A DNA stretch of 64,000 nucleotides from Protoeuglena noctilucae (Eukaryota), in the NCBI GenBank assembly GCA_958009085.1, contig OY253685.1:248001-312000 (forward strand), given 5' to 3'. Positions 4,001-60,356 of the stretch are shown here, in pieces (within the stretch, counting starts at the first letter, position 1; every line of letters starts with the position of its first letter). A program made the position numbers and the translations under genes. A model generated the notes under the pieces. The model was not told the origin of the DNA and did not search any database. It worked only from the letters and a program-made list of their open reading frames with translations.

Positions 4001-4973
4001 GCGCTGCACGATGACTGCGCATGGCACCAGACGCTGGGAGGGCCCGCCGCAAGCACAAACCCACCCACAGCAGCGTCATCACTGGCATGTCGCAGAGCAC
4101 GGCAGGGACCTCGCCTGCAGGAAGTTGGACTTGACGGCGCAGCCCGGTGGGCCGTAGTCATAGAACCCCGCCACCGAGCCATAGATCCGGAAGGAGGGCA
4201 CGTAGAAGAGACGGCGCTCCAGGGTGTTGGCCACCTCCTTGCGAAATGCCTCCTTGTCCGCCGACGACACCTGCGGGACGCCGCGGAGGGCCGCCGGCGT
4301 CAGGGGCGTCCCCCCAAAGCACCGAGGGACGGCCCCGCCACGCCTCGCACCTTCCCCGTCGCCGCCTGGTACGCCTTCTGCGCCTTCTCCAGCTCCACCT
4401 TGCAGTTCTTCAGCTGAGCGATCGCCTCGTCCACGGCGGCCTGCGCAGCGGACCAGAGAAAGCGGCACCGCCTCGCTGCACTAGTGGGGGCCCGCCCGCG
4501 CGCTGGCTGGCAGAAAGCGCCTCGGAGATTCGACAGATGTCGTAGGCAAAATGCCGGCCGTCATGGCGGAAGACGGCTGCCCCCAGCCAGGGGCCGTCGC
4601 GGGAGCTGGGCCGCGGAGACGTCGTGCCGCGCGCGGGATCGCAGCGGCCAGGTGGTGTCCCGAGCGGCCCCATCCTCCCGCGACCGGTACAGACACGTAG
4701 AGAAGCAGGCAAACGTCCTCTTGGACCTGCCCCCCGCGATCGAGAGGGGCCGGGAACGGCCAACAGACAGCTAGCCCGCCCGAACCGAGAAAAGCGCGAA
4801 GACGGGCGAACGGCGGGTTTGATAGAGCGGCCCGCCAGATGTGGAGAATCAAAACTCACCCGGTCCACCTTGCCCTCCTTCAGATCAGCCTTCAGCGCGC
4901 GGACGCGGTCGCCCTGCAGGGTCGCGGCATTCTGCGCCGCTTCCACGGCCGCCTGCAATTCCTCGGCGGTCAT
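1074..4973 (-). CDS. GARS: Glycyl-tRNA synthetase (eukaryotic alpha2 type, N-terminal WHEP domain), multi-exon
   Basis: Spliced motifs: QGDRVRALK (WHEP), [82 protein letters not shown]. Confidence 0.96.
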
Positions 4974-5192
4974 CGATGCCCCAGATGCACGGAAATCGCG
5001 AATTACCAGGGTCTGGAGGCGAGCGGGGTGGTGAGCGGCCCTCTGGGCTCGGATCCCGTCTCGCCAGCCCGACCGATGCTGCAGCACAGGAACTTTGCGA
5101 CAGCTCTCACGCTATTCTGCCATCCCCAAGCATGGACCGCACGCGACGCTTCCCCTGTGCCCGGGCGCGCTTGCTCTCCCAACTTCAACGCC

Positions 5193-7368
5193 CTACGCAC
5201 GCATGTCGAGCACATGCACCGAGCCATCGGCCGTGGACGCGGCCAGGAAGTTCCCCGAGGAGTGCCATGCGACCTGGTACACCCGGGTCCCCGCCTTGTA
5301 CGCGCGCTCCTGCGCCCCGCCCCGCGCCGACCACACCAGCACCTGCCCGTCGAACCCGCCCGTGGCCACGTGCCGCCCGCACGGGGAAAAGGCCACCCCG
5401 TACACGGGCTCCCTGTGGCCCGACAGCACGCTCGCGCACGCCCCCGTCCACCCGTCCCACACCCGCACCGTGCCGTCGTTGGACGCCGTCGCCAGGTACG
5501 TGCTGGGCGCGCCCGCCGGCGTCCAGTCCTCCGCCATGATCTCCTTCCGATGGCCCTGCGAGCGCAACCACCGTCACGTCGCTGCATCCTCCCGGCATCC
5601 CCACCCTCCAAGTGCCACCCAGTCAAGATGCAGATCCACGCCTGGTGCAGCGCGGCTGTGAGGGTCCGTTTGCATGTGGCTCACCTTCAGGGTGTGGAGT
5701 AATTGGCCCGTGTCGGCGTTCCATATGCACGCCGTCTTGTCGTCGCTGCAGCTGGCCAGCATGGACATGTCGGCGCTGAAGCGCACGCAGTTGACGTCCT
5801 TGGCGTGCCCCGACATGACGCGGAGGGGCTCGGGGGACCCAACGCGGCACAGGGCCACGCGCCTGTCCTGCGGGAAGACAACAAGAGGCGCGGCGCGGGT
5901 CGGTCAGGGCAGGGCTGCTGCACACGTGCTGTGCGACAGCCGCGACCTTGCGTCGTACCTTGGAACAGCTGGCGAACTCGGTTTCGTCCCGCCAGCACAG
6001 GTCCAGCACGGCGTCCTGGTGCGTTCGGTACTCCTGCTTAATCTCCCCCTCGTTCAGATCCCACAGCACCACCACGCCGTCCGCGCCCCCGGACACGAGC
6101 GAGGACCCGTCCTGGCACCACCGGATGGCGAACAGCGCCCCCTCGTGCCGCTCCAGCGTGTGCACCAGCTCCCCCTCCGCCGCCCACACCTTGATCACGC
6201 CGTCGTAACCCCCTGTCGCCAGGTGCTCCCCGTTAGGGCTCCACGCCACCGTCACCACGTCCTTCTTCTCCGCGGTCCGCCCCGCGTGCCCAAAACGCCG
6301 CGGCTTCTCAGATTCGACGTAACGCGAGAAATCGGACGGCACCTCCCAGAGGCGCGCGCTGCCGTCGCCCCCGGCCGCCAGAACGTGGCTGGACTGGGGG
6401 TTCCAGAGGCACGTGAACGCCTCCGCCTGCATCCCCTCCAACACCAGCGTGCGCTTCTCCTCGAGGCCCTCCATGTCTTCCTCCATGGGCTCGGGCCCCG
6501 CCTGCAAGCACGAGCGCCACGAGGGTCGTGTGCATGCACGCCACGCCGGCTGCCCATGTCATCCAAACGTCGGCTGTCCGCCACTCCACGCGTTGTCCAG
6601 CTCCGTCGCCTTCGTACTCCCTTCCTCTTGCGTCACTCAGCCACTGTGTCAGACTTGCGCCGCCCACCTTTGCCTTGACGTCTTCGTCCATCTGCTCCCG
6701 CTTGGCACGCACGAGGGCCTTCAAGTCGTCGATGGATTTCGTTAGGAGATCCCGGGGCGTGAGAAGGGAGAAGTCGCCCTCGATGTCTGCGTCCCAGCCA
6801 ACGATCGGGGCGGCACCGGTAACAATGCGAGCGGCCGGCAGAGGGCGGGCGCCAGCGAGGGCACCGGGAGCGGGGAACAGACGCCGCGCAGCGAGGGGCG
6901 AGGACCGCCGCGAGGCCCAGGGCCGGCGCCAGCGCGCGGAGCCACTCACCCGTGGCGCTGTCCTTCAGGTTGGCCTCGAGTTCCAAGTACTGCATGCCCT
7001 TCTGGATGAACGTGATCAGCGCGCCCGGCGGGACGTCGTTCGGGTTCATCTTCACCTTCTGGATGCTCGACTCGAAGCCGAAGGTGAAGGCCGCGTGGTG
7101 GAAGCCTGCGCGCGTGCGGGGCGCGCAGTCGGCCGGGCAAACTTAAATGCACGCGCATGTAGCGGGCGCTGGCCAGGGTCAGCGCGTGAAGGGGCGAAAT
7201 TGAAAGCGGCGGAGGGCACTCGCGGCCCCGCAAGCGGCGCCGAGGCGCTCCAAATGCCGCGCGAAGCGGGGCCGGGCCACGCGGTGTTTCTTTTCAAACC
7301 TGCCGGTCACCTGACTCCTGGAGGTACCGGAACACCAGGTAGTTGACCTCATCGGACGTCAGCGCCAT
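5193..7368 (-). CDS. TBL1: TBL1/HOS15/Sif2-type LisH + WD40 co-repressor subunit
   Basis: N-terminus MALTSDEVNYLVFRYLQESG|FHHAAFTFGFES and PPGALITFIQKGMQYLELE (LisH region), followed by multiple WD40 repeats. Confidence 0.9.
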
Positions 7369-8860: not shown

Positions 8861-11293
8861 TCACAGCCCCCGCACGGGTGCTGCTCCCGTCTCTAGCTCC
8901 ACGTCCCGCTGCATCTTGCGGTTCTTCTCGCGGAGGGCCCAAATCTCCGCCTGCTCCTCCCGCGCGCGGTCCGACCGGGCGCCCGACTCGTAGAAAATGC
9001 GCCGGCCCTTCTTCTGCGGTCGGGGAGCCGCAGCGGGTGAGCAGCGGTCGCAAGTTGGCCCGCACACGTGGGCTGGCAGGTCGCGATGGCCTGCGCTGCA
9101 GCCGTCGCTCGCCTGCTTCTGTTTCTGCGTGATTTCCACCAGGCCACGTTTCTGCAAGCTCTTGTACCGGTCCACGGTGACCGCTGCGCAGGGCTTGATC
9201 TTGCGCAGCGACCCGCTCAGGTCGTCCGTAGTCATCACCTGCGGGCAGGGCTGGCGGTGAAGCGCATGACCTGGCGAGCTGGGCTCACTGGAATCGATCC
9301 CATCGGCAGGTCAGCTGCAGCCCGTCAGCAGCCCGACCAGCCAGCACCAGAGCTGAGCTGCTGCATGCCCCAGGGCCCCTGCAGCCAGCGCATTGCCAGC
9401 GACCCTCGCCTGCACCGGCATGTCCTCGAAGCGATGCCGCCCGAGCCGCGGGGGCTCCTCCAAGGCCCGCTCCTCCTTCACCGCCCGGTGCCTCGCCCTC
9501 AGGACCTCGCGCTGCTCCTCCTCCTCCGCGACCTTCCGCTCCAACTCCGCCAGATGCTCGATGTCCCTGCGCTGACGCTTCAACTCCCGCCGCGCCTCCT
9601 CCTCCCGCTCCATCTCCCGCTTCCGCGCCAGCCGGTTGCGCTCCGCCACCGTCTTCTTCTCTGCGCGACGCTGCGCCCGCCGCGACAGCGCCTTTCCCGC
9701 CGAAGCCTCCCCGCCCGCCCCGCCGTCGTCCTCCTCTTCTTGCTCAGAATCGGACAAGTCGACCACGAGGTCATCCACCCCGGGCAGCTGCCCCGGGACG
9801 TGCCGCACACGGTCCACCACCGCCTGCAGCAAGCAGAACGCGAAGCCAGGGGTGTCATGCGCTATCTCGACGAGATTTGACCTGACCTATGATACCAAAC
9901 TGGCCCAGGGAGACCCCCCTCGCATGCAACGCGAACGCTGCTGCAGCCAGCCGGGAATCCGCCCCGCGCTCGCTGCCCCATCCTCGCCTTTTCCACCTTC
10001 GGGCCGAGCTCCTTCCGCAGCTCTTTCTTCATCTCCTGCGCCACGGCCGCCGCCACCGCGTCCTGGTGGTCCTCGTACGTCGGATTGTACGACGACCCAG
10101 GCACTGCCACCTCCACCGCCGGGATGGGTGCGACGCGGAGGGCCTTACGACGCCTCACAACCACCTCCTGTCGCAGGACGCGGCGCGCCCTGTCCTCAAA
10201 GTCCTCACCGCCAGAGCCGGAAGGCCCAGGGTCGCCTCCGTCCCGGCGCTCGGCCCCCTCCGCGCCACTGCCCCATAAGTCCAATTCCTGCGGGGTCTGC
10301 GCGGACACGTCATTCACCAAAGCTCGGTAACTGTCCTTAAAAACCAGAAAGGCAGTCCAAGCTAATGAGGACGCATGCCTCCACTCCTGCTGCAGCAGTG
10401 AGGACGCACGCACCGCATCGCCATTGCCCTCTTCGCTCCTCAGGGCCACCTCAGTCCCAGCCGACGCGCGCCCTTCCTTGGACCGCTTCTCCGCCAGGTG
10501 CTCGTGAAGCTTCTGCGGACACAGACGCAATCGATTCGATCGTCAGCCCCCGGTCACCCAACACTGCCGGCCTGAGTCGCAGCCACGCCTTTCACCTTGT
10601 GCAGCTGCACTTGCTTCCTCTTGGCGCCTCGCAGCAGGGGCTGCACTGCGTCGCCCTGCTCCAGAATGGCCTGGGCCCGGGTCGTCTTGCGCCGGGCCGC
10701 CTCCCGGTCCACGCGCCTCCGCCGCACGCCACCCGAGGGCGGCAGCGACACGGACTTGTCTGCAGCAGAAGTTGGTGCGACTCTGCTTCGCGCTGCGACG
10801 GGCCCGGCGACCGCCCACCGGAAGCGGCAGCGGCACGCGGCGCTGCGCCCTGGGCACTGCGGTTGCTCACCGATTTGGAAGAGCTGCTCATCCTTAAGGT
10901 CGCTGACCTTGACTTCCCGAGATTCCCTGTTCTCTCGCTCGACGGCCTCGACGATTCTGCAGAGGAGGCGCCGCGCGCGGTGGGCAACTCGGCACGCCCC
11001 GGCGGCTGCCTTGTGCCTCGCGCGGCTGCCCAGGAGGGCGCCAGCGCCCGGGCCGCTTCTTTCAAGCTGCAGCGTTTGATATCGTCTGGCGGAAACCGTC
11101 ACCGCATCCCCCGCTTTCCTTTCAGCGAGGGAGCGGTCGAGGGCGCCGACTGCCGCGGCAAACGTCTGCTCTCGCAAGCGAAACCCGCCTCCTCCTGACC
11201 ACGCGTGGCGCACGCTCACTCTTTGTCGTCAATCTTCTTCCGCCATTGCTTCTTCCCCCGCCGGGAGGTCTTGGCCTTGACCCGCTTCACCAT
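8861..11293 (-). CDS. NOP53: Ribosome biogenesis protein NOP53 (GLTSCR2)
   Basis: SRRGKKQWRKKID, LFQID (AIM-like motif, formed across a splice), PGSSYNPTYEDHQ, DLSGSLRKIK, DRYKSLQKRGLVE; three GC-AG introns. Confidence 0.92.
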
Positions 11294-18072: not shown

Positions 18073-19661
18073 TCAGTTCCCGCTAGAGTTGTTGCTGCTG
18101 CTGTTGCTGCTGTTGTTCGCCAAGTAAGGCTGAAGCCTCTGCGGGGACAAAGGCAAGTATCGATGGCTCAATAGGGCTGCTTGGGCGATATGAATGTCAG
18201 CCACAGGTGCAGTGACCACCCTGGCATGGCGCCCTCACCCTGGCGAGGGCCTTCAGCGACCGCGTCTGCACAAACACGAACTGCTCCGTGGAGGACTCGT
18301 TCGTGAAGAGGATGGCAAAGCCCTGCGAGCAGGTTGCCAGAAAAAGCGTACCAGATATCCCACTCATCCACCCATGCCGCGCCGTCTCATGCGAAGCGCA
18401 GCTGCAGTCGTCCAGACCCCTCACCTCGCCCGTGATGCAGCTGCCCACGACGGTGTCCGCGGCCTTCGTCAGCGTGTACTTGAGACCCGGGTCCTGGGTC
18501 CACCCCAGCACGTACCCGTTGTCGAACTTGCGCGACTCGCCGGGCTGCAGCACGTACTTGGCCAGCGAGCCGAAGGCATTGAAGAAGATCTTGCCGTGGC
18601 CACGCGCCCTGCGACGAGTCACAAGCGTTTGTTGTAGTAAGCGCGGCCCAGCCCGTCACACACATGCCAAAATGCCCGGTCTCTCGCCCTCACCTAACCG
18701 CGCAGCAGGTCCCCGTCGCGCAGCAGCCCGCCAGGCCCAGGCACGTGGCGTGGATGGACACCGTCTCGTCGGCAGCCAGGAACGCCCGGGGCTGGAACCG
18801 GACCTCAGCACCCTCGCCGACCGTGTACACGCCAATGTCGCCCGAGAGCTGCGGCGACGAAGCGGAGGGGCTGGGCTGGGCGTGACGCTGTTGTTGTTCC
18901 CGGCCAAGTCCGGGCCCTGCGCGTTTGCTACGCCGTGCTATGCACACCTCGGGGGCGATGAGGACGTCCGCCGAGGCACCGCCCTTGGGCCTGTAGTGGT
19001 TGAACCAGCACGTCTCGCCCAGCAGGGCCAGGAGGCACCCGTTGCACGACCCGCCCTCGCACTCGGCCGACAGAGACATGTTGGGGTCGATCGTCAACAT
19101 CGTTCCCCCGACTGACTTCACGCCCACGTCGCCGGGTTTAAGCTCGACCTGCGTGCGGCATGTGGTGGGCATGTGGTGTGCTGTGGTGGCACCCAAGAAT
19201 CGCAGCTAATATCTCGGCGCTGCGACTCGCCTGGATGCAGGGGTGCGCGCCCGGCAGCGCCAGGTAGTAGCGAGAGTCGTTGGGGTCGATCTGCGCGGGC
19301 ATCGCACGGCGTGGCGTCGCGGCACGCATGGCTGTACCGCTGCACCGCCCCTATGCATGCAAGGCAGCGGGATCTACGACACGGTCGCCCGCGCAGGCCA
19401 CATACCTGCACCATCCGCTGCTGCAGCGGAGCAGAGGCCACGGTTCCGCCCGAGAGCGGGATGCCCATCGGCACGAGCTGGGCTGCAGGGGACGGCGAGC
19501 CAGCGACATTGCAGCCGGGCAGGTGGCGGGCGCAAGGGAGTCGATCACTCCAACACATACAGGCTGTAGAATCGACGTTCTGCGGCAGAATGCGTCCCTT
19601 TGGTTTTTGACCTTGTGCGCTGCGCCCTCTCACCGGAGGAACCCGTGCCATTCTTGTCCAT
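18073..19661 (-). CDS. AIM24/TRAP-like domain protein
   Basis: VELKPGD..GTM, GETCWFNHY, PRAFLAA, GHGKIFFNAFGS, LQPGE..FDNGYVLGW, VFVQTRS; C-terminal poly-N/S encoded by a GTT/GCT microsatellite. Confidence 0.75.
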
Positions 19662-19923: not shown

Positions 19924-21865
19924 ATGAGCCTGCGCGCCGTGCCTCCGAACCGGCAGCTGTGTGAGATGCAGAGCGACGCGGAGGCGCCGGGGACGTCGAG
20001 GCACGCGGCGCTCGCGAGGCTCAAGCGTCTGCGTTCGGATTTCCACAGCCTGCTGGCGCAGAAGGCGAGGGTCGTGGGAGCCCGCGTGCTGCGCATGATA
20101 CGCGTGTGCAATGACCGATATCCAGGCGGCGTCGCGCGCGCAGAGGGAGGTGCTGGCGTCGGTCCAGGAGGCCACGCACTTCATCGCGCAGCAGGCCACG
20201 GACAGGAGCCACCGGTGAGGCTGTTGGAAAGGGATGTGATGTGCTGGCAGGCGCTCATACATGAACGCTGTTTGTGAATTTCTTCTACCCAGGCCCCACC
20301 CTCGCCTCGTCACGCACGCGGCGGTCGCGGGCTTCGTTCCCTCAGCGCCCAGGCGAGCCAGCAGTGACCTGGAGCCTATTCACATGCGGTTTCCTGGGCC
20401 TAAGAAGCACCGAAGCATCCAGCCGTGGTTGGTCCACGCAGGCCTCCCTCTTCGCTGGAGACGTCGATCGTGTCGGCGTTCCACCGGCAGCCGGCCAAGA
20501 GAGGCGAGCGCACGGGGCCATCAGGTCCCCGTCCCATGTCAGCCTCGTGGGTGGAGGACGAGGGACGGCGCTCGTGGGACCGCGGGGCCGAGGGGGCGGT
20601 GCCGGGTCCCTTCGATCGCATTGACAGGGCCCTGCAGCGCCGCGCGGCGCTGAGGGAGTTGCGCGTGCGGGTTGGGGCGCGGAGCCCGGTCGTAGAGCCA
20701 CCCAGAGTGGAGGCCTCTGTTTCGGAGAGAGACGAGGGCCACGCCAGCGATGGGGAGGTGGCAAGCGACGCTGGGGGACCGAGCGAGGGTGGTGGCGGGC
20801 AAGAGGAGCCCTCAGTAGTGGAGGTGCCACCTCGCGCGAGGTCGGTGGGGGTGCAGGCGGGGGAGCAGGAGGAGGCGCCAGACAGGAGTGAGGACATGGC
20901 AGCACAAGCCGTGTCTTACTTGCGAGCCCGCACGGCGCGGGCCGTGCTGGGGGCGTGGGCGGGGTGGGCGCGGGCCCTGGCGACGGCGCGGCTGCGGGCG
21001 ATCCGGCGCGAGGAGAGCTGGGGACCTGCGGCCTTTCTGTGGGCGGGCGCCGGTGCGTGCGCGGCGGGGGGCGGCGCTGGAGAGCATGCAGGTCGATGTT
21101 TGGGGTCCGATGCAACTGCCAGCTGTGCCGCCCATGCATGCAGACCCGTCCTGGTCGCGGCTGGCGAGGAGCCAGGGCCACACGGCGCTCGCGAGGGAGT
21201 TCTACCGCCGCATACTCCTGGCCAAGGCCCTCGCGAGCCTGCGCCGCTCGGCGCTCTTTCCAACGGGAGGGGCTTTGGTTGTCAGCAATGGTAGTAATGG
21301 TGGTGGTGGTTCGTCAGGGTCGGACGACGGCGTGGCTGCGGTGGGTGTGCAGGGGCAAGGCAGCACGTGGGAGCTGCGGTCGGAAGCCGAGAGCTCTGCA
21401 AGGTCCTCGGAGCTGTCAGAGAGCAGCAGCAGCACTTGCTATGACCGCTACCAGTGGAGTGTGCCGCGGGTGCCCCTGTCCCGAGAGTGGCTGGAGGGCC
21501 TCAAGGGCGCAATGCGGGCTTTCCCCAAGGGCCGTGGGGTGCTCAGAGCGGGGGGCAGGGGAGAAGGGGGATGTACCCAGGGCCAGGCGGGCTCTCGGGC
21601 GCGGTGGTGGAAGGGGCGGTTCCGGGTGCTGGCGACGGCGGCAGCGGGGGCGCGGGGTGATGATGATCGAGGGGAAAGGGGGGGCAGGAGCGGTGGGGTC
21701 GGGGAGGCATGGGTTGAGAAATGCCCCTCCAGCAGCGAGGGCGAGGGCGGCTGGGGCGCGGACCAGCGGTTCGCCGCGTGGCTCAGGCGGCGGCGACGCG
21801 GGGCTGGCGGTGGGGAGATGGTGGGTGATTCATCGTTTGGGTTGGCAATATTGAAACGTACGTAG
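19924..21865 (+). CDS. Hypothetical spliced protein (coiled-coil/low complexity, a few Trp-spaced helical repeats)
   Basis: Consecutive long ORFs joined by plausible introns (e.g. GTGCGT..CATGCAG at ~21053-21143); no firm family. Confidence 0.45.
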
Positions 21866-28152: not shown

Positions 28153-29709
28153 ATGAGCGCGGTGGCGATGCGCGCGTGCCCGCTGGCGCGGGGGACGGGG
28201 TGCTCCCGCGCCTCCCCTGCCCCCGCTGCCGCGCGCGCGGTGCATCCCGCGCCCCGCCGCTGCGTGGCGACGAGGGCGGCCGCGCTGGAGAAGGAGGTCG
28301 TGGACTCCAGCAGCATCTCGCCCTACCTGCGCGTGTCCATCCTCTCCGAGGCGCTGCCGTACCTGCAAAAGTTCCGCGGCAAGACGGTCGTCATTAAGTA
28401 CGGGGGTGCCGGTGAGGGAACGCCGGGGGCGTGCCACGCGAACGGCGCCTTCGGGCGCGGCGGGGCTGCGCGGTGCGCGCGCTGGCCCTGTACCTAACCC
28501 CGCCCCTTGCACGCCCCCCCTGCGCCTCGATTCCCCGCGCCCCGCCCCCTCTGCGGACGCTGCGCCATCTGCGATGCCGTTTGCGCCAGGGGACGGCCCC
28601 GCGGCTCGCGCGCGTCGCTCGGGCGGACGCGGGACCCTCGCACGTGCGTCGCAGCCATGAAGGACGAGAAGCTCAAGGACCGCGTCGTCTCGGACGTCGT
28701 CCTCCTCTCCACCGTCGGCATCCGGCCGGTTCTCGTGCACGGCGGCGGCCCAGAGATCAACAGCTGGCTGGGCAAGCTGGGCATCGCCGCCAACTTCAAG
28801 AACGGGTGCGGGGCGTAGCGGCCGCTTCAGTGGCGCGGGTGCTGTTCGCGCCGCTGCCGCGAGCTCCCCCGCTGCGCTCCCCCCGCAGTCTGCGCGTGAC
28901 GGACGGGCCGACCATGGAGGTCGTGGAGATGGTGCTGGTGGGCAAGGTCAACAAGTCGATCGTGACCCTCATCAACCAGGCGAGCCTTGGCGCGGGGTGT
29001 TCAGTGCTGTGGCAATCTATGGTTGGTCTTTCTGTGCGGCATGTCAATGAACCGTGGATGCACATGCCCTCCTGCAGGCTGGCGGCTCTGCGGTGGGCAT
29101 GTGCGGCAAGGACGGGCGCCTGCTGGTGGCGCGGCAGATGGTGGAGGAGGAGCTGGGGTTTGTGGGGGAGGTGACGTCGGTGAACCCGACCGTGCTCAAG
29201 AACATCATGCAGGACAACACGATCCCCGTCATCGCCACCGTGGCCCAGGACCACACCGGGCAGGCCCTGAACGTCAACGCCGACACGGCCGCGGGCGAGA
29301 TCGCCGCGGCGGTCGGCGCCGAGAAGCTCATCCTCATGACGGACGTGCCGGGCGTGATGCGCAACAAGGACGACATCAGCACGTTGTTCCGCAGCCTCAC
29401 CATCCGCGAGGCGCGGGAGCTGATCAAGGACGGCGTCATCGCGGGCGGCATGATCCCCAAGGTCCAGTGCTGCGTCCGCTCCCTCTCCCAGGTGAGACGC
29501 GCAGAGCTGAGCGCCCAGAGCGGGGCGTGAAGCGTTGCGAGTGGCCGTGCCTTCCACGTGCGTGTGTGGCAACGTCTCACAGACAGTTTGCTCCTCTGAC
29601 TGGCACGCAGGGCATCGGGGCCGCTCACATCATCGACGGGCGCCAGCCTCACTCGCTGCTGCAAGAGCTCCTCACCGACTCGGGCGTGGGCACCATGATC
29701 ACGGGCTGA
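28153..29709 (+). CDS. NAGK: N-acetylglutamate kinase, plastid
   Basis: [65 protein letters not shown]. Confidence 0.97.
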
Positions 29710-37482: not shown

Positions 37483-40400
37483 ATGTCCGATCTTCGCGTG
37501 GGATTCGTGGGCCTCGGCGCAATGGGCGCTGGGATGGCGCAGGTGCGGCTTGCACATGGCCCGCGAGCATCGAGGCTTGTCGTCGAGCGAACGCGCGCGA
37601 TCGGGATTTCCGCAGGTCCTGCTGCGAGCTGGTTTCGGCGTCCGCGGTTTCGACGTCTGGCCACCTGCCGTCGAGAAGTTCGCTGCGGCCGGGGGCGCAA
37701 CCGCGACGGACGTAAAATCGTGCGCGGCGGGCGCCGATGCGCTCGTCCTGATGGTCGTGAGTGCCGATCAGGCCGAGGACGTGTTGTTCGGCGAACAGCA
37801 CGCCGGCGCGTCGGCTCTGCCGCGCGGGTCCGTCGTCATCCTGTGTTCCACTGTCGCGCCTGAGGCCGCGCGCGCCCTGGCTGCCCGCCTGGCCGCGGAG
37901 GGGCTGGCCTTCGTGGACGCGCCCGTGTCGGGTGGAGTGGCACGCGCTGCCGATGGCGCCCTGACCATCATGGCGTCGGGCGACGAGCACGCGATGGCCA
38001 AGGCGAGCAGCTGCCCGTCAAGCGTACTGGGCCTGGAATGTTGCCTCCCTAGCTGCCCCCGTGCTGGCCTCAGCGCACGTGCACGTCCCATTTGCAGGCG
38101 CGCCCTCTGCTGGAGGCCATGACGCGCAACCGAGGGAAACTCTACACGGTCGCCGGTGGGCCCGGGGGTGGGTCAGCAGTCAAGATGGTCAACCAGGTGG
38201 GAGCGACGCGCTGCGTGCATCGCTACATACATGTCCCTGCCATGCACATGTCCCTCCGCTACCCTGCCCCCCCATACAGATGCCCACACCGAGACCGTGC
38301 CCCCCCATGCACAAGCCCACACGCCCTCACCCCTCGGCCTCACCGCAGCTCTTGGCGGGCGTGCACATCGTCGCGGCCGCTGAGGCCATGGCCCTGGGCG
38401 CCCGCATGGGCCTCAACACCCACCAGCTCTTCGACGTGATTGCCAACGCGGCTGGCGCCAGCTGGATGTTCTGCGATCGCGTGCCGAGGATGCTGGGAGG
38501 GGACGCCACGCTCGACGCGCCCAAGTGAGAGCCCTTGGTGGATAGAGACAGTGGTCCAGTCAGTCAGCATTGTGGGAGCGCATCACGTGACGTTGTCGAC
38601 TTGACCATGCCTGGTCCCAGGACACTCCATGTCTGCATTTGGCATGCTCTTTGGCATGGCTCCAAGCTTCCCTCTCTCCTCGCATCCCATCTCCACCTCA
38701 TCACCTCGCTTCCAGGTCTGCCCTGGACATCTTCGTCAAGGACCTCGGCATCGTGCTTTCCGAGGGAGCACGCTCAAAGTTCCCTTTACCCCTCTCCGCG
38801 GCCGCGCACCAGATGTTCCTCATGGGCTCTGCCATGGGAATGGGACGCAAGGACGACGCGGCAGTGGTGCGGTGCTACCCGGGTGCAGACGTGGCGGTGG
38901 GCGAGGGGCGCAAAGCCATCGTGCCTAACGAGGGAGCGGGCGGGGGCGGTGGTGGTGGCGAGGCAGGGGATGGTCTGCGGGAGTCGTACGGGAAAGAGGA
39001 GGTGAGGGCGTGTGTGATGAGGCTGGGCGGGCTGGTCATGACTGCGGTCATCTGACGTAAGCGTGAGACCTGAGCTGGTCGGCATTGGCAGGCCACGCCG
39101 TCTCAATAGCTGCTTTCTCACACCCTTGCATGGTCCTGTGGCGATGGCATCACCTGTCACCCTGCTTGTCCGACCCCGCAGATCCTCGGCCCCCTGCCGC
39201 CCCAACGGCCGCTCACCGCAGCGGAGGTGGACGAGTGCCAACGACTGGCGCGGCAGCGCTTCCTGGGTGAGGCTGTGTCCAACTACCCTCGTACCTCCAT
39301 GCGACGGTGGATGAATGTTGGTGGTTGAGTGTAGCCAAGCTCGTCTTGTTTTCCGTTGCAATCGTCTCCCTCGCACCTTGCCGCAGTGGTGCTGGATGAC
39401 GACCCCACGGGCACCCAGACCATGCACGGGGTGCGGGTGCTGCTGGCGTGGGACGTGCCGACTTTGGAGAGCACCATCCGCCACCTGCAGGCGAGAAGAG
39501 AGCCGTGCAGGGTGCTGCGGCGTGTATGAAAGAACATGGTTACTGTTATGAATAACAGTAGGTTGCATTCAAGTCACGCTCATCTGTTCCCATGGCAACG
39601 CATCAACACAACGCACCTACAGCGCATCTCACTCTGATCACGTGACCCTCATCCACCGCAGTTGGACCGTGACGCCATCCCCGGCTTCTTCGTCATGACC
39701 AACTCGCGTGCCCTGGGCGCCCCCGCCGCTTCCGCACTCATGCGCGAGGTCTGCACCAACCTGGCTGAGGCCGCACGCAACGCCGACGCCGCCGTGTCGA
39801 TCGTGCTGCGCAGCGACTCCACCCTGCGGGGGCACTTCCCGCTCGAGGTGAGGAGAGAGAGGTCGATAGAGTAGTACTAGATGTCGACTTTGACTCGACA
39901 GTGCCCAGTCACACGGATCATAGACTGTGCTATGGTGTGTCCAACACACAAGCTTCCACATCAAAACCCTCCCGTGTCGCAGAACGACGTCGCTGCGGAG
40001 TGCCTGGGCCCCTTCCACCGCTGGCTCCTCTGCCCCTTCTTCTACGCGGGGGGTCGCTTCACGGTCGACGGCGTGCACTACGTCGCCGAGGGGGACAGGC
40101 TCGTGCCCGCGGGCAAGACGCCGGTGAGAGCGATGAAGATAGACTCACATGTATCTGCTGCAGGGCATAATTGTACGCAAGCAGATGCTGCTATGCACTG
40201 ACATGTCCCCTACCACTGCCGTGTTTGTTGGCCACCGCCCCGCCCACCTGGCCGACCACAGCACGCAAAGGTACACCTCATGTCTCTCTGTTTTGCTCTG
40301 CAGTTTGCCAGGGACGAGGCCTTTGGCTACCGGTCCTCTCGCCTGGCTGAGTATGTGGAGGAGAAGACGGGGGGCCGGGTGAAGGCTGGGGACGTGGCAG

Positions 40401-43400
40401 TGGTGGGGCTGCGGGCAATTCGGGAGGGCGGGGTGCAGGCGGTGGAGGACATCGTGATGGGCATGAAGGAGGGGGCAGGTGAGGGATGAGTGGATGGGGT
40501 TCATGTGGGGTGTAGTGGGGATGGGAGTGCAATGTGGTGAGGGAAAGGCTGGGTGGGTGCGGCAGTAAGTGTGCGGTGCTGGCGAGGGTTGGGCTGCGTG
40601 CTGTGGTGGGTGCCAGTTGCCATGGCATCTCCCAGCTTCCATCCGTGCCCTCCTGGCATGGGCTGACTGACTTGCGACTGCAATGCTCTCCCTCACACGT
40701 CCCTTGCAGTCTGCGTGGTGGACGCCGCCGATGACTGCGACCTCCACGTGGTGTGCCTGGCGGTGCTCCGGGCCCAGGCGCGAGGCGTGCGGGTGCTGTG
40801 CCGCACCGCCGCATCCTTCGTCAGTGCCTGGCTGCTGCCGGGAGAGGGGCCCAGGGCGCCGCTGGGGCCGGAGGACCTGCCCCTGCCGAAGGTGAGAGGT
40901 GGTGGGGCATCGGGGTTGGTGGGGCGACAGTTAGGGGAATTTGTCGTCAATGGTAAACCACCACCACCACTTCACTCCACACTCAACCTCCTCCCTGTCT
41001 TCTCCCTCACTCTCAGATCCCGGCCCCCACCCCCGCGGGCCTCATCGTCTGCGGCAGCTACGTCCCACGCACCTCCGCACAGCTCGCGGCCCTCACCGAG
41101 CGCGTGGCCTCCGCCGGGCTGCCCGTGGAGCTCGTCTGGGTGTCCGCCGAGCTGCTGTGCAAAGAGACGGAGAACGCAGCGAGGCTCGGGGAGCTGCGGC
41201 GCGCGGCGGCGGCGGCGGACCGAGCGATGACCGAGGGCCGCACGGCTTTGGTGGCGACGTCAAGGGGCGTCGTGATGGGCGGAGGGGTCGACGGGGCCAT
41301 TGGGGTGCAGGGGCGCATCGCGGATGGGCTGGTGGAGGTGAGAGCGGAGAGGGTGGGGCTGGCAGAGGTATGCGGGTGGAGCAACAAGGGGCTTTGGTTA
41401 CTCAATGTCATAGTCTCTTCGTCTCCCCAGATCCTCCGCGCCGTTGCCACGCGCCCCGCCTTCCTCATCGCCAAGGGCGGCATCACCAGCGCCGACGCTG
41501 CCCGGCGCGCGATGGGCGCGCGGTCTGCGGCGGCGGCGGACCGAGCGATGACCGAGGGCCGCACGGCTTTGGTGGCGACGTCAAGGGGCGTCGTGATGGG
41601 CGGAGGGGTCGACGGGGCCATTGGGGTGCAGGGGCGCATCGCGGATGGGCTGGTGGAGGTGAGAGCGGAGAGGGTGGGGCTGGCAGAGGTATGCGGGTGG
41701 AGCAACAAGGGGCTTTGGTTACTCAATGTCATAGTCTCTTCGTCTCCCCAGATCCTCCGCGCCGTTGCCACGCGCCCCGCCTTCCTCATCGCCAAGGGCG
41801 GCATCACCAGCGCCGACGCTGCCCGGCGCGCGATGGGCGCGCGGTCTGCGGCAGTGGCGGGGCAGGCGGCCCCGGGCGTGCCCCTGTGGGTGCTGGACGA
41901 CGAGTGCCGCTTCCCTGGTGAGTCAATGCAAAGCGAGGCGTCTTAGCTAACGGCTGCATGTGAGGATGAATGCTAGGTGCACTGCAAGGCTTGGCACCCT
42001 CCCGTACCGTCCATCCACCCCTCCGCTCACCTCTCCATTCCCAGGGCTCCCATTCGTCGTTTTCCCCGGCAACGTCGGCTCAGAGGCCACCCTGGCTGAC
42101 GTCGTGCAGCGATGGGTCACAGGACACCGCACTTGGCCCGCAACCCTGGCAGGGCCTGGCGCCGCCCCCCAGGCATCTGCGCCCCTCGCTGCGCGGGAGG
42201 GGCTGCGTGCGATGCTGGAGCGGGCGCGCAAGGGCGGATACGCCATCGGGGCGTTCAACGTCTACGACGTCAACGGTGGCGCGGCTGTCATCGGAGCCGC
42301 CGAGGCGTGCCGCAGCCCCGCCATCGTGCAGGCGAGAGATAGAGACGTCGTAGTCTATCCGCACCCTTGCACTTATCGCAGCCATGCTCACTAAGCCACA
42401 ATGGCTCCCTGCCAACAGCCAACCGGTGGCCGTTGCGCTGTGCAGCTCGCCTCCTGGCCAATCACGTCCACGATTCATCCCCACTCACAGTCCTTCTTAC
42501 CCCCTCTTTGTATCCCAGGTCCACCCCGCGTCCCTCCACTCCCCCGGCGGCGGCCCTCCCCTCGTGTCAGCCCTGCGGCTCCTGGCCCGTCGCGCCACGG
42601 TGCCCATCGTCGTCCACATGGACCACATGGCCCCCGACGACTGGCCCAGCGCCCTCTCCTGCCTGGCCGACAGCGCCATGGTGGACGGGTCGCACCTGCC
42701 TTACGAGGCGAACGTGGCTGCAACACGTGCGGCAGTCGAGGGGTGCCGCGCGCGTGGGGTGGACGTCGAGGGAGAGCTGGGCCGCATCGCAGGCACGGAG
42801 GACGGCATGACCGTGGATGAGATGGAGGCGTGCATGACCGACCCCGCCCAGGCCGCGGCCTTTGCGCTGGCGACCGGGTGTGCGGCGCTGGCCGTATGCG
42901 TCGGCAACGCCCACGGACCCTACCCACCGGGCGGGGCGAGGATCGACCTGCAGCGCCTCGTCTCCATTTGTGCTGCCGTGGACGGGGTCGCGGGTAAGGG
43001 CACGGGGCTGTGTGAGATGCCAGGCCATCTGAGAGGCAGGGCTGCCCTGGGCGGGTCTGTTAGCTATCGCTTGCAGCGACGATGCATGGACGCTGAGGTG
43101 CGCTGATGCCCTCTGATACCCCTGTGCGCATCGACAATGATGACGCTGATGGCTCTCTGAGTTTCTGTCACTCCTACTTGCAGGTCCCTCGCGCCCCCGC
43201 CCCGAGATCGTGCTGCACGGGGCATCGGGCCTCGACCCCGACGTCGTGCGGGCGTGCGTAGCGGCGGGTGTGTCCAAATTCAACGTCAACACCGAGTGCC
43301 GCGCTGCGTACGTGGCGGCGATGCGCGAGTGCGGAGGGGACCTGACCGCGATGCTGGAAGCGGGACGAGAGGCGATGGGCCGGGTGGCGAGGGGGAAGAT

Positions 43401-43759: not shown

Positions 43760-43760
43760 G

Positions 43761-48811: not shown

Positions 48812-48812
48812 G

Positions 48813-51954: not shown

Positions 51955-54840
51955 TCAGGCGTGCCTGGGACACATGACCTCCTGCGGCACCCCAAGGTTC
52001 TCAAAAGCCCGGATGCGTCCGGAGTAACCTGCCACCAGAATGACGGCGCCGTAGAGACCCAACCCCACACGCTCCCCCGCCTACTGGCCACCCCACCCCA
52101 TCCTGTGCACACAGGACCAAAGCCAGGACGCAGTGACACAGCGCCGCGGGATGGCGAGCAGCATCCACGCCCACCCCGCCGTGGGTGAAGGACACCATAC
52201 AGGGCACTAGGCTTCTCTGGGCTCACCCGAGCGGTGGCTGGGCGGCGTCCTCTGTGCGGCACCTGCTCAGCGTCCCGCTCGAGTCGCGCCGCGGCACCAC
52301 GGTGCGCTTGGGCGGGATGGGGGCGCCGGACGACTGCCGGAGCACATTGCCCTGCGACAGAGAGTCGCCAACCATCGTCCGTGTCTGCGATACCAGCAAC
52401 GATGATCATCACGCACCCGCCCCGCAGTGGAAGTGTTCCTTGCCTTGGCGGAGTCCTTGGGTGAGTGCCCCATCTCGGGCGTGGTAGAGGCGGTGGAGGA
52501 GGCCAGGGCACGGTGGAGCGCGGCGACGACGTGGCGGCACCGCTCGGGGGCAAAGATGGCGATCAAAGCCGTCTCGTCCAGGGCCCTGGGGGTGGCGCGA
52601 GTCGTGGATGAGACGAGGGCTGCCGTGCTGCGCAAGGCGTCGCAGGTGGCTGTGCATCCATGGGGCCACTGCTCAGCACTCACTGGAAACTCTCGTAAGC
52701 GTATTGCTTGTCGCGCCGGGCGTGCCCCAGCTCGTCCTCGCTGCCCCGCCCCGACGCTGTGCGCCACAGCATGACCTTCCCGTCGTCCGACCCCGACAGG
52801 ACGTACTTGCCGTCTGCGGGAGAGAGAACGCAGGGAGGTGTAGGGGCAGTGGCACTGTGGGGCTTGACCGTGCGGTAGACGGTGCTGCTGAGAGTGCCTG
52901 GCCTCAGCCCATGCGAACCTCGCCCGTGACCGACCACGCCCGTCAGCTGCGCAGTAGTAGTCACTACTGCGCCCGTCCGCACTCGCCCGCTGGTCCGGCA
53001 ATGGTCCCGCAGCGCACCCGGACTCACCCGGGGACGCCGAGGCGCGGATCTGGCTGTTGAGATTGCGGTGGCCCTTGAATTTCGCTCGCTGCGCATATCC
53101 CTCGAAAAGGCGCACGCGGGAGTCGTTCGAGGACACCAGAAGACGGGGGACGCAACTCTCGCCTGGCAGCACCTCGAGGCCTGGGGACAAGCACAAGAGC
53201 AGGTCAGGCCACACGGCAGCACTCGGCATGTGGGTGCACGTCTCTTTCGCAAGACCCCCCACCGCACCTGTGATCTTGCGCGCGCGTGCGCCCCGCGATG
53301 TGTTCTTCACTTCCACCTGGGTCGAGAGCTCCAGGCCCAGCCCCTTCTCGCCGCGCGCCTGGACGGCGTAGAAGCGGCACTGGCCCCGCATAGAGCCCAC
53401 GACGGCCTGGTCCCCGCTCGCCCCGAAACACGCGGACGTGACCATGTCGTCGACCTTGGTACCGTCCACGACGGCGCACTCGGGGACGCTCCACAGGTGC
53501 ACGCCGCCGTCCACGGTCCCTGCGGCGACGAGAGCGATGGCGGTGCGCTTGGGGTGGCACGCAGCACGCAGCATAGATCGGTGAGCATGGGTTGATCACG
53601 TGTTGCCACTCACCTGCCAAAAAATACCGGTGGTCTTTGGGGTAGAAGGCGACGCACGTGACGAAGTCGCCGTGTTCAAAGACCCGGAGGCACACGTCGG
53701 AAGAGGCGTGCCAGAGACGCACGGTGCGGTCCATACTGCGACAGGTGTGAAAGGAGCGTGAGAAAAGAATGAGACACAGAGTCACAGCACATGAGGTCTT
53801 ACCAACATGCGCATGGACCCTCGCCTGCTGGAAAGGAGGAACTCGCTCTCTCCGTTGGTGGCAGACCATGACAGGTCCAGGATGTCGGCCGTGTGGCCCT
53901 GGAGCTCCCTGCAGCCCAGCGACCGTGCGGCACATGTCATGCGTGTCGGCTGTGTGTCTTTTCAGGCGTGACAGAGAAGCACAACTGGGACGCGTGCACG
54001 ACTGTCCCATGGCACATGCGCAGCGCCTCGCCTGAGGGGCTGCTCCGACAGCACGGGCACGTGGGTCCGCCCCGGGTCGTCCCGACTGCCCACGTGCTCC
54101 GAACGGTCCAGCACGCCCCAGACGCGCACGACGGCGTCCTGGCCCCCCGTTGCCAGGAACCTCCCGAGGAATGAGAACTTCATCGCCCAGATGGCACCTG
54201 CAGGCATTGCTGGCACACCCTCAGCACACACGTACCCTGCAACCCGCCAATCCGTGCCAGAGGCAGGCTCAGCTCACCCTCGTGCGCCTTGATGTCTTGC
54301 ACGACCCCCAGGTTGCTCAGCTCCCTCTGACACTTGCGGAACACCATCACCGGCACCGAGTGGTCGTCTGTTAGGTCCGGGTCCTTTGCAGGCGGGGCCC
54401 GGCCAGGTGCGGGCGGCGGCCGCGGGTTCGCAGAGCTGGAAGCGAACAGTTTCCCGAACAGCGAGCGCAGGCTGCGGGGCCGCTGGCCGCGAAGTGGGGG
54501 CTGACCCTCTGCCTTGCCAACCTCGGCCTCCAAGCCCCGGTCCCGCGCAGGCCTCGTCACAGGCGCGGAGACGCGACGAGAGACGTCTTGCATGCTGCTC
54601 GTCCGCGGCAGAGCGCCCGCTGCGGACCACCAACAGGCTCGTTAGGCGCGTAACTGGACGCTAGGGTGTGTGCGCCCGTGAGGCCGCGGGCCCGAATGGA
54701 CGCGGGGCAACAAGCCAGGCGCACGCAATTACCTATCCGCTCGTCGCTGGAGTCGCTCCACAAACTCTCGGGGTCCTCAGAAACGCGCATTTTGGCCGGC
54801 GAGGGCCGCGCGTCGGCCTCCAGCCCTAACCCTCCCATCC
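51955..54840 (-). CDS. WDR44-like WD40 protein (5' end uncertain, may extend to ~55500-55800)
   Basis: QDIKAHE|GAIWAMKFS..LATGGQDAVVRVW, GHTADILDLSWS, SSSMDRTVRLW, FEHGDFVTCVAFYPKD..YF, LLVSSNDSRVR, C-terminal GAVILVAGYSGRIRAFENLG. Confidence 0.85.
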
Positions 54841-56488: not shown

Positions 56489-59400
56489 TCACAGTCCCGG
56501 GGCAGCGTCGACCTTGGCCCCCTTGCGCAGCACCCACAGCGCGTCCAGGTACGCCTCCACCCGCTCGTGGCCCAGGGCCGCCCGCACTGCGTCTTGCTGC
56601 AGAATCTCCGGGGACAGCCCGTGGGCCACCTCCATCAACAGCATCCACCAGGAGCTGCCTTCTGGGCAATCCTGGGGTCCCTGCGTGGAAAGAGACGGGT
56701 CAGTGAACCCATCAGCGTGGCTGGAGTACCACACACTGACCACGTGGATGCAGATGCTTTCCGCAGCCGCGGCGCCATCGCCCCTGAAAGCCTGTGTCCC
56801 TCGCTCACCCGCACTTGCGCGGCTGCCATGAGCTCCAGCACGGCAGCGGCGTAGGTGGCGCTGTAGGGCGGCCCGCACTGCGACAGGACGCCGTACAGCG
56901 CAAACTGGGCGTCGTCAGGCGCCGCCCTCCTTGCGAACGCCGACAGCCACTCCAGGGCCAGCCCCGAATTGTGCCTCGTAAGGACCTCCAGCACCAGCTC
57001 CACCATCGCCAGACGCGTGCCTGACTCGGTGCCGGGGCTGAGGCACACGTCCCTGCGTGCCAGGTGCCAAGCGTCACGTGGCAGGTTGCCGACGCATGCA
57101 GCTGAGTGACCGGACAAGCCTGTGGGGCATGCGGGACTGCACGCGCGCGCGCTCTTACCGGAACAAGGCGAGGACGTGGGCACAGAGCTGCGGCTGGGCC
57201 CCGTAGATGTGCTGGCCTGCCTTGCACATGGCCCGGGTGGTCGCCGGCGTCAGGAACTGCTCCCCTACCTCGTCCACGTGCCACATCATCTGCGTGAGGA
57301 TCATTGTGGGGTCTTGTGCGCTCCAGGGCTCATGTCGACGCACCAAGCAGGCGTGCGCCACTGCAGTCGCGTCACCTGGTGCAGCATGCCCGTGCACGCC
57401 GCTGGTAGAATGGTGGCCACTCCCAGGTCGTGGTCATGAGGCAGCACCCCGCTGATGGCCGCCCGCCCCACCTGCGCGCAATCGCACTTCGGTTTACGTC
57501 AATATACACACTGTCCGTCCCACAGTGTCTCTGCATCCTCGCCTGCCATGCCTGCCAGCAAACCAGACCGCTGCACCTGCACCCACACCAAGCACCTGTG
57601 CCGCCTTGTCAAGCACCGTCTCTGCCTCCTCCAGCGTCATCCGGAACGTCAGCTCCCCGCCTTCGCCACCGGGGTCGCCTGCATGCAAAGTCCACGTCAC
57701 GGGTGGACTGGGTGCTTTTGCGTCTACAGTACGGCCACAGGTACATATGCAGAGGCAGTTGCAAAAACCTTCACCGCCATACCCCTCCCTCACCTGCCCC
57801 CTCGTGTGGCCCTGCACCCCGCCCCCGCGTCGGCAAACCCTGCCCGTGTGTCCCCTCATTGCCGTTGGCTGCCCAGCCCCCTGGCGTCGCCCGGGCCGCC
57901 ACCGCAGCATGCTCCGTGTCTGGGTCGAAGAAGCAGTGAACTGGCAGTCGCGTCACACACAGCATGTGGCTGTATGGAACACAAGATGAGTTGCACGCTC
58001 ATCCGCCCGGGGGGACTGGCAGGGAAGCATTATTGATAAGACTGGACATGTAAGAGCAGAGCACGATGTCCACAGTCTGTATCCAGTAGTCTCGCGAACC
58101 CTTACCCGCACTGCACGCCAGCGCCAGGATCCTCCGTGCGCGCTGCTGGTCTTGCAGGGGCAGCTGCCTGGCTGGGTTGAAGAGCAGCGCCATGAGGTGC
58201 TGCAGGACGGGGAGGCGCTGGATGGCCGAGATGCTGGGCAGCGGCTGCCCACCGTCGCTGTGGGACGTGGAGGGGGCCTCGTCAGCAGCAACCTGCTGGG
58301 CACAACAGGGGCGTACACGGCATTTATGCAGGTATGCGATACGCAAAACACCCATGGTTGGTATCATCATCGACACCCACTGGCACGTCTGCCCCGCTGC
58401 TCTCACCGCGTCCCAGGCGCGTTCACGGTCGTCGGCCCTCCGCCCCTGTCGTGGGGTGCTGCCACGGGACCCTCGGCCCCCCCGGCCCCGCGGCGTCGGG
58501 GCTGCTTGCAAGCTCCCCGTGTCTGGGTCCGCGGAGGCGGTCGAGGGGAAGTAGAGGGACATGAGGCGTTGCAGGGGTCCGCTGGGGTCTGCAGGAGAGG
58601 CAAGGCCACGCGGTGCATCAAGCCAGGCCATGGACCATACCATGCAAGTCACGCAGGGCAAGCACGGGTGATGGCAACTTTCGGCGAAGGCCTCGCGCTC
58701 GCCTGCCCGGCTCTGCAGCAGCATGGCCGCCGCCTTGTGCGCTGCCCGGTCGACTTTGCCTATGTGCCGTGGCAGCAGCGCTGGGCTCAGTTGGCTGGCC
58801 TCCTGCCACACCCCTGGCCCCTGGGAATCCCCCACGGCGCGCTGAATGGCCGACGCCACCGCCCTGCGCGTATACAGAGAGGTCAGATGCCACGCCCGGC
58901 ATGCGCGGCACCGCACGCCCCCGTCGCCGCAGCTGCTGTGACTAGCAGTGTCACTCACCGGAAGGGACCCCCCAGTGGCATGTCCCCGAGTTTCGTCAAT
59001 ACCATGAGAGCGTATAGGTACGTGTGCTCGTCAGCCTTGGTCGCCATCTCAATGGCCGCCTCCGTGCCCAATGGGTCGCCGGACAGAGCCGCAGCCTCCA
59101 GGCGCGCCGCAAAGATGCGGCTGAACACATCGAAGAAGCCCGTCAGAGGGCCACCCACGCCGGCGACCTGCGAGGGCCAGGGAGCGCGGCGTGCACGACT
59201 GTCTGCCAAGCTGCCCTGGGCTGCTCAGGGCTGGGATGCCCAGGGGGGTGCCAAGTCTGCGCAGTCCAAGCTCTCACCTCTCTGGCGAAGCCAAGGGAGA
59301 GGATGCGCTGGATGGCGAAATTCAGGAGGAGGCACGTGCGATGCCGGCTGGACAGATCGTAGACGAGCTGCCGACCGTACGCGTCGTTCACGATCCCCTC

Positions 59401-60356
59401 GAGCCAGGGCGGCGGGCCCGATCCGCCCTTCTTGAAGATGCCCTTGAATACCCTGCGGCGGCAAGTTGGGAGAGCCGTGCTTCCAACTGCAATGGCCCAG
59501 GGGGCACGCGAGCAGCGGGCAGAGGGGCAGAGCAGTGCACTCACCGTGGGTCGAACTTCTCGAACGCCATCTCCTCGAGCATCGCAACCAGAAGGTTATT
59601 GCCAGCCTGCATGTTGAGGGAGTGCAATTGGATAAGCCTTTGCTGCGAGATTGAAGCAAAGGCCAGCTCTCGGCTGGCGCAGCTGGCGGAGCTCGATGCA
59701 GGCGTCTTGGAGGGACGAGCGCTCGTAGGCGAAAGATCTGCAAAGTATGTCAGGCCACGGTTGAGGAGGTCTGCGGGTGCGTCCTCGCCTCGGGGCTGTA
59801 GACGGCCTCGGGCGGGGCCTCGCCGGTGGCCAGCGCGAGCCACTGGCACGTGAGCTGCGCCATCTGGGCATACCCCACGTAGGAGTCCGCCAGCAGCTCC
59901 ACTGCTGTGTCGGGCTTGCCCCCGCGCTGCACGTATTTCCGCAGGACCTGCGAGGTGCGGTGCCCGTGCGCCCTGGTACCACGGACAGGCAGCATCCCGC
60001 CGCCCCTGGATCGCTACGGTGGTTACATATGCAATAGATGTATGCGTTGCAATGTTGCACGGCGACAAAGATCTGTTGCCGCGTCAGCGGGGATAGGCGT
60101 GCTTTGTTGGCCCCTTCCCTAACCTCCCTGCCGGCCCGGGAGCCGCGAAATCCACAGACATGGCGCGACAGGATAGAGCACGCGTCGGTGAAACGTTTTT
60201 CCCCCGTCCCTTCGCACAGGGCGCCCGGGAGCGCTCTGCATCGTGACGCGAACGGGCATGGGCGCATCTGCTCGCCTGGAGAATGTCGGGCTCCATGATG
60301 CAGTCAGGCTGACGCATCTGCTGCTCCAGTTGGAGCAGCTCCCGATCCGCGTCCAT
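56489..60356 (-). CDS. NELFCD: Negative elongation factor subunit C/D (TH1 family)
   Basis: PDCIMEPDILQ|VLRKYVQRGGKP..VELLADSYVGYAQMAQL..QWL; PPPWL..RQLVYDLSSRHRTCLLLNFAIQRI; HTYLYA; LPVLQHLMALLFNP; PPYS. Confidence 0.85.

Follow-up and report, generated by a model that had tools for sequence, protein, structure and literature searches.

GC-AG introns are strongly enriched in a 64-kb window of the alga Protoeuglena noctilucae (assembly GCA_958009085.1, contig OY253685.1, positions 248,001 to 312,000), the whole stretch of DNA analyzed here, numbered from its first letter. Our curated set for this window holds 124 introns, 102 with GT donors and 22 with GC donors (17.7% GC-AG), a share roughly 10-fold or more over the usual ~1–2% (PMC7072748; literature statements here and below are drawn from excerpts of the sources cited). 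All counts refer to this one window, whose representativeness for the whole genome is presumed. An earlier reading made from the letters alone (the sequence-only reading) had listed 16 GC donors and estimated that one in ten of a little over 100 introns was GC-AG, an approximately 10-fold over-representation. The enrichment within the window is confirmed, and the estimate was probably an undercount, one in ten being if anything low. We regard it as likely that these are ordinary U2-type GC-AG introns, compensated by perfect pairing with U1 and made common by GC pressure.

The GC content is 63–69% across the whole window (without N), and intron interiors are 64% GC. Third codon positions (GC3) in confirmed exons, read in the coding frame, reach 0.84–1.00, as against ~0.5–0.75 in introns (for example, exons 24001–25059 and 29078–29491), and this extreme makes reading frames and exon limits legible from composition alone. 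The gene content includes a chlorophyll a/b-binding domain and an MlaD-domain gene. Along with the fusion gene and the named NELF-C/D relatives described below, these suggest a marine green alga of the chlorophytes. Between 32% and 47% of sampled words of 29000–38999 were present in marine metatranscriptome runs, as expected of spliced exons, and all were present in runs of "organism A". For RNA evidence, four runs were aligned to 24001–44000, and 15 of 45 joints were listed: 13 GT-AG, one GC-AG, and one spurious (GG..TG, with 21 letters on one side). The introns confirmed by RNA carry G/GTGAG or GTGCG at the donor and GCAG/ at the acceptor.

Four GC-AG introns, with donors at 28980, 52443, 53824, and 54031, are removed from mature mRNA. 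Metatranscriptome contigs of X1 and X4 jump 98 nt in the acetylglutamate kinase gene argB (28976 to 29075, with 5 ambiguous letters). Among the six cuts that fit equally well, splice dinucleotides occur only in the +3 cut, 28980–29077, where they are GC..AG; none is GT..AG. The adjoining exons meet at positions 88/89 of the argB profile. The other three introns belong to a WD40 (WDR44-like) gene. A search with the exon adjoining 54031 found P0001, a 541-aa protein from a 1818-nt Joint Genome Institute (JGI) contig, whose residues 40–541 (502 residues) are identical to the spliced translation of this gene. When all cuts yielding the same peptide were listed for each intron, the only cut with splice ends was GT..AG in five introns and GC..AG in the other three (54031, 53824, and 52443). 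The donor at 52443 had escaped the sequence-only reading; a GT in frame 27 nt further along, whose flank score is fair (2.4), is ruled out by P0001. The N-terminus of P0001 reveals a further GT-AG intron at 54620–54732, and three of the nine introns of the gene are GC-AG.

Colinearity with protein profiles or homologs indicates that seven further GC-AG introns would be removed from the mRNA. In the abutment test, single exons were translated and their coordinates were read on protein profiles. Exon 4115–4270 of glycine-tRNA ligase (GlyRS) ends at TIGR00389 position 45 and exon 3802–3939 begins at 46; the GT junctions of this gene abut on the profile equally well, and the sole in-frame GT alternative to 4114 scores −7.6. 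At 9409 in NOP53, using a GT 6 nt upstream (flank score −0.3) would remove two residues. The junction that follows 38003, in the dehydrogenase part of a fusion gene, abuts on NF043037 at 177/178, the middle 33-aa exon matching at an E value of 0.021 only. Two N-terminal introns of POP1 were placed with related metagenome loci, which are 36–43% identical overall and informative for the N-terminal junctions only. Splicing at 32198 gives LPRVLDIK/DFAAARDQEV, which aligns without a gap (18 aa, 72% identity) to an uninterrupted stretch in loci L002 and L008–L011. Exon 32331–32462, with the limits given by the sequence-only reading, fits POP1_N 1–46 to the last exon residue (E value 1.8e-8); a stop lies 18 nt past the donor at 32463, no in-frame GT is present, and a gapless 22-aa match to L002 (55% identity) crosses the junction 32462/32568. 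A homology search with the POP1 exon, aimed at longer proteins, gave no match. For 60275, in the NELF-C/D (TH1) gene, blastp alignments to P0006, P0022, P0056, P0012, P0020, and P0033 run gapless across residues 27/28; an exhaustive representative search gave 55 NELF-C/D relatives, and a PDB search with the 27-aa exon gave no relevant match. In all, support independent of the gene parser described below exists for 10 of the 16 claimed donors (28980, 53824, 54031, 4114, 38003, 42332, 9409, 32463, 32198, and 60275).

Some of these loci have features of interest in their own right. An X2 RNA contig is continuous from 32525–32567 into the next POP1 exon, which suggests retention or unspliced pre-mRNA at low depth. 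The fusion gene (37522–43431, plus strand, ~17 exons parsed) joins an L-threonate dehydrogenase-like domain, a four-carbon acid-sugar kinase (SBD_N and NBD_C), and a class II aldolase. Within it, one exon–intron unit from the kinase C-terminal domain is duplicated in tandem at 41206–41860 (plus strand), with a period of 321 nt (334 nt, 99.4% identity), so that the same ~76–107 residues occur twice in the parsed protein. The duplication may be genuine and in frame, or it may be an artifact of assembly. Among the relatives of the NELF-C/D homolog (56489–60356, minus strand), P0006 comes from Pedinophyceae sp. YPF-701 and P0016 from Auxenochlorella protothecoides. Two of the GC-AG introns, 9014–9112 and 53909–54031 (both minus strand), are in frame and free of stops; their retention would insert a peptide and not truncate the protein.

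The remaining introns were placed with a two-strand Viterbi parser that treats intron lengths explicitly. It started from the exons and introns confirmed by RNA and went through five rounds of self-training; the GC-donor prior was 0.1 in the main parse and 0.001 in a stringency test. The parser recovered 13 of the 14 introns shown by RNA and 15 of the 16 claimed donors, the exception being 32463, in place of which it wrongly chose GT 32358. Permitting GC donors gained 159 nats over a GT-only parse, compared with 1.5–48 nats for each of 14 decoy dinucleotides (2–16 "donors" each), gains that are partly an approximation of the true GC introns. The GT-only parse moved or replaced the GC donors, bearing out the warning of the sequence-only reading that GT-only predictors would mis-annotate this DNA. 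Forbidding a single claimed donor cost 4.2–12.2 nats, with the exception of 33788 (0.4 nats), and at the prior of 0.001 sixteen GC donors were still called, 13 of them claimed. The GC donors have flank scores of 4.3–6.3, against a GT median of 3.8. Most of their in-frame GT alternatives fall short of the 5th percentile for real GT donors; those at 9987 (0.9), 32198 (1.0), 62511 (2.1), and 52443 (2.4) score higher. The parser also merged neighboring genes, missed intron 54620–54732, and put a POP1 donor at 33228, whereas the RNA piece ends at 33212/33214.

Five claimed donors (9112, 9987, 19230, 20065, and 39491) are parser predictions. The 9112 intron is without codon periodicity, with a GC content of 0.73–0.75 in all three frames. 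For 9987, an in-frame GT 9 nt upstream (aag/GTGGAA) is a possible alternative. The 39491 intron contains stops and is 52% GC, and the Pfam SBD_N coordinates around it are compatible, with ~6 extra residues; a PDB search with the two flanking kinase exons gave no relevant match. The sixth, 33788 in POP1, is the weakest of the 16. There, GC3 periodicity indicates coding at 33700–33787 and 33906–34111 in different frames, no in-frame GT alternative scores above −1.8, and a tblastx comparison of this middle region with the related POP1 loci gave no match. No Pfam match at E values up to 10 was obtained for the short exons flanking 19230, 20065, and 33788, and an exact 34-mer of a NOP53 exon had 0 matches in metagenome contigs. 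A sequencing error at donor position +2 was considered and rejected, as the donor codon is GCG at 9112 in the genomic open reading frame (ORF) P0059 (on 17 contigs) and at 59788 in P0004. These two were in turn rejected as evidence on splicing, both being ORFs on genomic DNA that read through the introns.

Table 1. The 22 GC-AG introns of the curated set. Listed, named in the sequence-only reading; the parser column gives the score lost, in nats, on forbidding the donor.
Gene	Intron	Strand	Listed	Parser (nats)	Standing and evidence
GlyRS	3940..4114	−	yes	9.7	TIGR00389 45/46
NOP53	9014..9112	−	yes	6.4	Parser; 99 nt, in frame, stop-free
NOP53	9239..9409	−	yes	4.9	Pfam Nop53 371/372
NOP53	9824..9987	−	yes	4.2	Probable; parser
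AIM24-family gene	19149..19230	−	yes	8.3	Parser; no in-frame GT before next stop
Gene of unknown family	20065..20143	+	yes	6.7	Probable; parser; internal GT alternatives ≤ −3.7
	20353..20441	+	no	0.5	Possible, weak; parser
argB (acetylglutamate kinase)	28980..29077	+	yes		RNA contigs and argB profile
POP1, after first coding exon	32198..32330	+	yes	9.1	Gapless homology
POP1	32463..32567	+	yes		POP1_N match and gapless homology
POP1	33788..33905	+	yes	0.4	Possible; parser
Fusion gene, dehydrogenase part	38003..38097	+	yes	9.6	NF043037 (L-threonate dehydrogenase) 147/148
Fusion gene, kinase part	39491..39661	+	yes	7.9	Probable; parser
Fusion gene, aldolase part	42332..42518	+	yes	5.6	Class II aldolase profiles abut within ±1
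WD40 (WDR44-like) gene	52352..52443	−	no		P0001 ...KDSAKGNVLRQ...; only GC..AG cut fits
WD40 (WDR44-like) gene	53736..53824	−	yes		P0001 ...FLLSSSMDRTV...; sole splice-end cut GC..AG
WD40 (WDR44-like) gene	53909..54031	−	yes	12.2	P0001 ...SEQPLRELQGH...; only GC..AG cut fits; 123 nt, in frame, stop-free
NELF-C/D	58589..58702	−	no	5.1	Probable; kept at GC prior 0.001; homolog alignment stops at junction
NELF-C/D	59607..59788	−	no	9.0	Probable; kept at GC prior 0.001; length-variable region among homologs
NELF-C/D (TH1)	59948..60275	−	yes	10.4	Gapless homology
	61330..61448	+	no	0.1	Possible, weak; parser
Unnamed gene	62511..62692	+	no	4.9	Probable; kept at GC prior 0.001

The enrichment holds however the introns are counted. 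The uncurated parse has 26 GC-AG introns among 140. For the curated set, 16 of these 140 introns, five of them with GC donors, were removed by hand as gene merges or implausible (289–1084, 5013–5219, 17364–18238, 21825–21873, 22275–22747, 22753–23647, 33228–33542, 33579–33718, 34112–34619, 35927–36649, 45307–45942, 45949–46219, 48225–49650, 49693–49741, 51531–52278, and 60441–61132), and intron 32358–32567 was replaced by 32463–32567. Counting only the independently supported GC donors gives a lower bound of 11 of 124 (8.9%; 95% interval 4.5–15.3%), and if the true rate were 2%, a count of at least 11 would occur with a probability of 4e-5. In the set restricted to introns with boundaries given by RNA or P0001, 4 of 23 are GC-AG. 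The GC donors are spread over at least nine genes and 56 kb, on both strands.

The 16 donors of the sequence-only reading have exonic AG followed by GCGAG or GCAAG, as it had described (16 of 16, eight on each strand), and the full set conforms as well: 22 of 22 GC donors stand in the context AG/GC[GA]AG, compared with 25 of 102 GT donors that have both AG and RAG. Of the 46 copies of AGGCRAG in the window, 22 are at donors and 24 elsewhere; of the 34 copies of AGGTRAG, 25 are at donors. All 22 GC introns listed begin with GC and end with AG, the ends of four being fixed by RNA or transcript-derived protein. Their acceptors are canonical AG sites, GCAG in 20 and CCAG in two, the same as in GT introns, and the candidate GC introns are without codon periodicity. 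U12-type introns were considered and rejected: the donor RTATCCTT or the branch motif TCCTTAAC was matched by 0 of 124 introns. The canonical U1 5′ end is ACUUACCUG, and the canonical U6 box is ACAGAGA. The introns thus appear to be ordinary U2-type GC-AG introns with compensatory U1 pairing, presumably processed by the standard U1/U2 machinery.

The mechanism we favor would place C instead of T at donor position +2 of major-spliceosome (U2-type) introns, with the remaining donor positions fully paired with the U1 5′ end (AG/GCGAG or AG/GCAAG). This full pairing elsewhere in the donor would ensure correct splicing. The T-to-C change would come from mutation bias, GC-biased gene conversion, or both, would be tolerated where the rest of the donor is optimal, and would be frequent because the genome is so rich in GC (63–69%; introns ~64%; exon GC3 0.84–1.0). 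The sequence-only reading had proposed relaxed recognition of +2, perhaps through a variant U1/U6 or GC-biased drift. GC-biased drift fits the composition of window and introns. Relaxed recognition through a variant U1/U6 is not supported: perfect context in 22 of 22 GC donors, in a contrast that is partly biased, is the pattern expected of compensation. A variant U1 or U6 is not required to explain the enrichment.

Several results weigh against this account. GC-AG makes up only 1 of the 14 real RNA joints among the 15 of 45 listed, and six other claimed sites in 24001–44000 lie outside those 15. Six of the 16 claimed donors are parser predictions, of which 33788 is weak and 9987 has a usable in-frame GT 9 nt away. 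The context contrast is biased as well: no GC donor is found among 77 imperfect donors, partly because the parser penalizes GC and calls GC donors only with strong flanks. Among donors in perfect context, 22 of 47 are GC (22 C and 25 T; 47%, interval 32–62%), against a C/(C + T) of 0.61 in intron interiors. A C share below the interior level is compatible with residual selection for T, and the interval also includes neutrality. Finally, the proposed causal role of GC pressure is argued from composition and from other lineages.

The near parity of GC and GT in perfect context, together with use of the GC donor at 52443 despite the in-frame GT 27 nt downstream, is also what would be seen if the splicing machinery had changed, in the U1 5′ end, U1C/LUC7, U6, or Prp8, such that C at +2 is read nearly as well as T and relaxed recognition, besides mutation pressure, enriches GC donors. 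We think this improbable. The count of 0 of 77 outside perfect context, biased as it is, follows the classical compensation rule; Rfam found no small nuclear RNA (snRNA) gene in the window, its only matches being two 5S rRNA genes, and hence nothing in favor of a variant; and for other GC-rich algae with similar or higher shares the authors, in the excerpts at hand, credit GC content and not altered snRNAs. We hold equally doubtful the related proposal that adaptation of the spliceosome (U1 5′ end, U1C, or U6/Prp8 contacts) has made C at +2 effectively neutral in optimal donors; if true, the T/C ratio in perfect donors would be near mutational equilibrium, and the lineage would be an intermediate toward the GC-majority state of Emiliania huxleyi. 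Slightly less probable again is a local enrichment, through strong GC-biased gene conversion or unrepresentative genes, with a genome-wide share nearer 1–3%. Only 64 kb were studied, the GC donors cluster by gene (three of nine introns in the WD40 gene and up to three each in NOP53, POP1, the fusion gene, and NELF-C/D), and none occurs among the 13 GT joints of the four well-expressed genes seen in RNA; against this stand the spread over at least nine genes on both strands and the uniform composition. That most GC donors are artifacts of gene modeling, chance AGGCRAG words beside real GT introns, is very improbable. The abundance of the motif away from predicted donors would allow it, as would the errors of the parser elsewhere (32463 missed, 33214 mis-set, 54620–54732 missed, and neighboring genes merged). 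However, the artifact is refuted for 11 GC donors, each established by RNA, by a protein derived from a transcript, by abutment on a profile, or by gapless homology; the decoy dinucleotides gain far less, and the in-frame GT alternatives are mostly poor.

Abundant GC-AG introns in GC-rich algae are already a known phenomenon, to which this window adds another case. In animals, fungi, and plants, GT-AG introns account for ~98% and GC-AG introns for ~1% (PMC7072748; PMC6310983), ~1% also being the human figure (PMC3167603), and genomic GC correlates positively with splice-site GC (Frey & Pucker 2020, PMC7072748). The introns described here share with those GC-AG introns the GC..AG ends, the major-spliceosome type, and an otherwise strong donor (PMC7072748); unlike them, they are ~10-fold commoner, with C about as frequent as T at +2 in perfect donors. 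E. huxleyi has 56–65% GC donors, attributed to a genomic GC content of 65% (Feldmesser et al. 2014, BMC Genomics, PMC4028052; PhycoCosm, PMC7779022) and verified by reverse transcription PCR (RT-PCR) and RNA-seq (PMC4028052; PMC7779022). It resembles the present case in being marine and GC-rich, in keeping the canonical AG at the acceptor, in having GC donors far above 1%, and in having genes that GT-biased predictors mis-annotate. In contrast, GC donors are the majority there and a minority here (~9–18%), and E. huxleyi is a haptophyte, whereas gene content and the nearest named homologs here point to a chlorophyte. As a source of this DNA, E. huxleyi was rejected on the 13 GT-AG among the 14 real RNA joints listed and on the presence of green-lineage genes and homologs. 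The dependence on donor context is shown here and is not taken from the E. huxleyi paper.

The share is very similar to that of pelagophytes, for which high GC is likewise credited as the cause (10.1101/2024.10.30.620910; 10.1101/2021.10.25.465678): GC-AG introns make up 14–17% in Aureococcus anophagefferens and ~14% in Pelagomonas calceolata, compared with 0.32% in a lower-GC relative (bioRxiv 10.1101/2024.10.30.620910). Introner elements of Pelagomonas and Micromonas have GT or GC donors. Pelagophytes differ in being stramenopiles with few introns (0.1–0.9 per gene), a part of which are introner elements; the window is dense in introns (~125 over its 64 kb), among which no repeated family was noted. 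A literature search, limited in coverage and without supplements, found no report of such a GC-AG share in a green alga.

By these data the alga is intermediate, with ordinary eukaryotes (~1%) on one side and E. huxleyi (>50%) on the other. The window offers a quantitative example of splice-site drift under what is probably GC pressure, with GC almost as common as GT in contexts of perfect U1 pairing. A predictor limited to or biased toward GT would shift, truncate, or fuse exons at about one in six introns, affecting at least nine genes in the window, including GlyRS, acetylglutamate kinase, POP1, NOP53, and NELF-C/D. GC donors should therefore be enabled when this genome, or related algae assembled from metagenomes, are annotated.

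The two 5S rRNA genes (43761–43879 and 48813–48931, both on the minus strand, 93 bits each in Rfam) lie between protein-coding genes. They sit in a dispersed repeat of ~780 bp (43491–44267 and 48543–49309, 94% identity) whose copies are ~5 kb apart. The loose ends of RNA contigs mostly have no match in the window; one matches this repeat, the loose end of an X2 contig before 43491 corresponding to 48513–48542, just upstream of the second copy.

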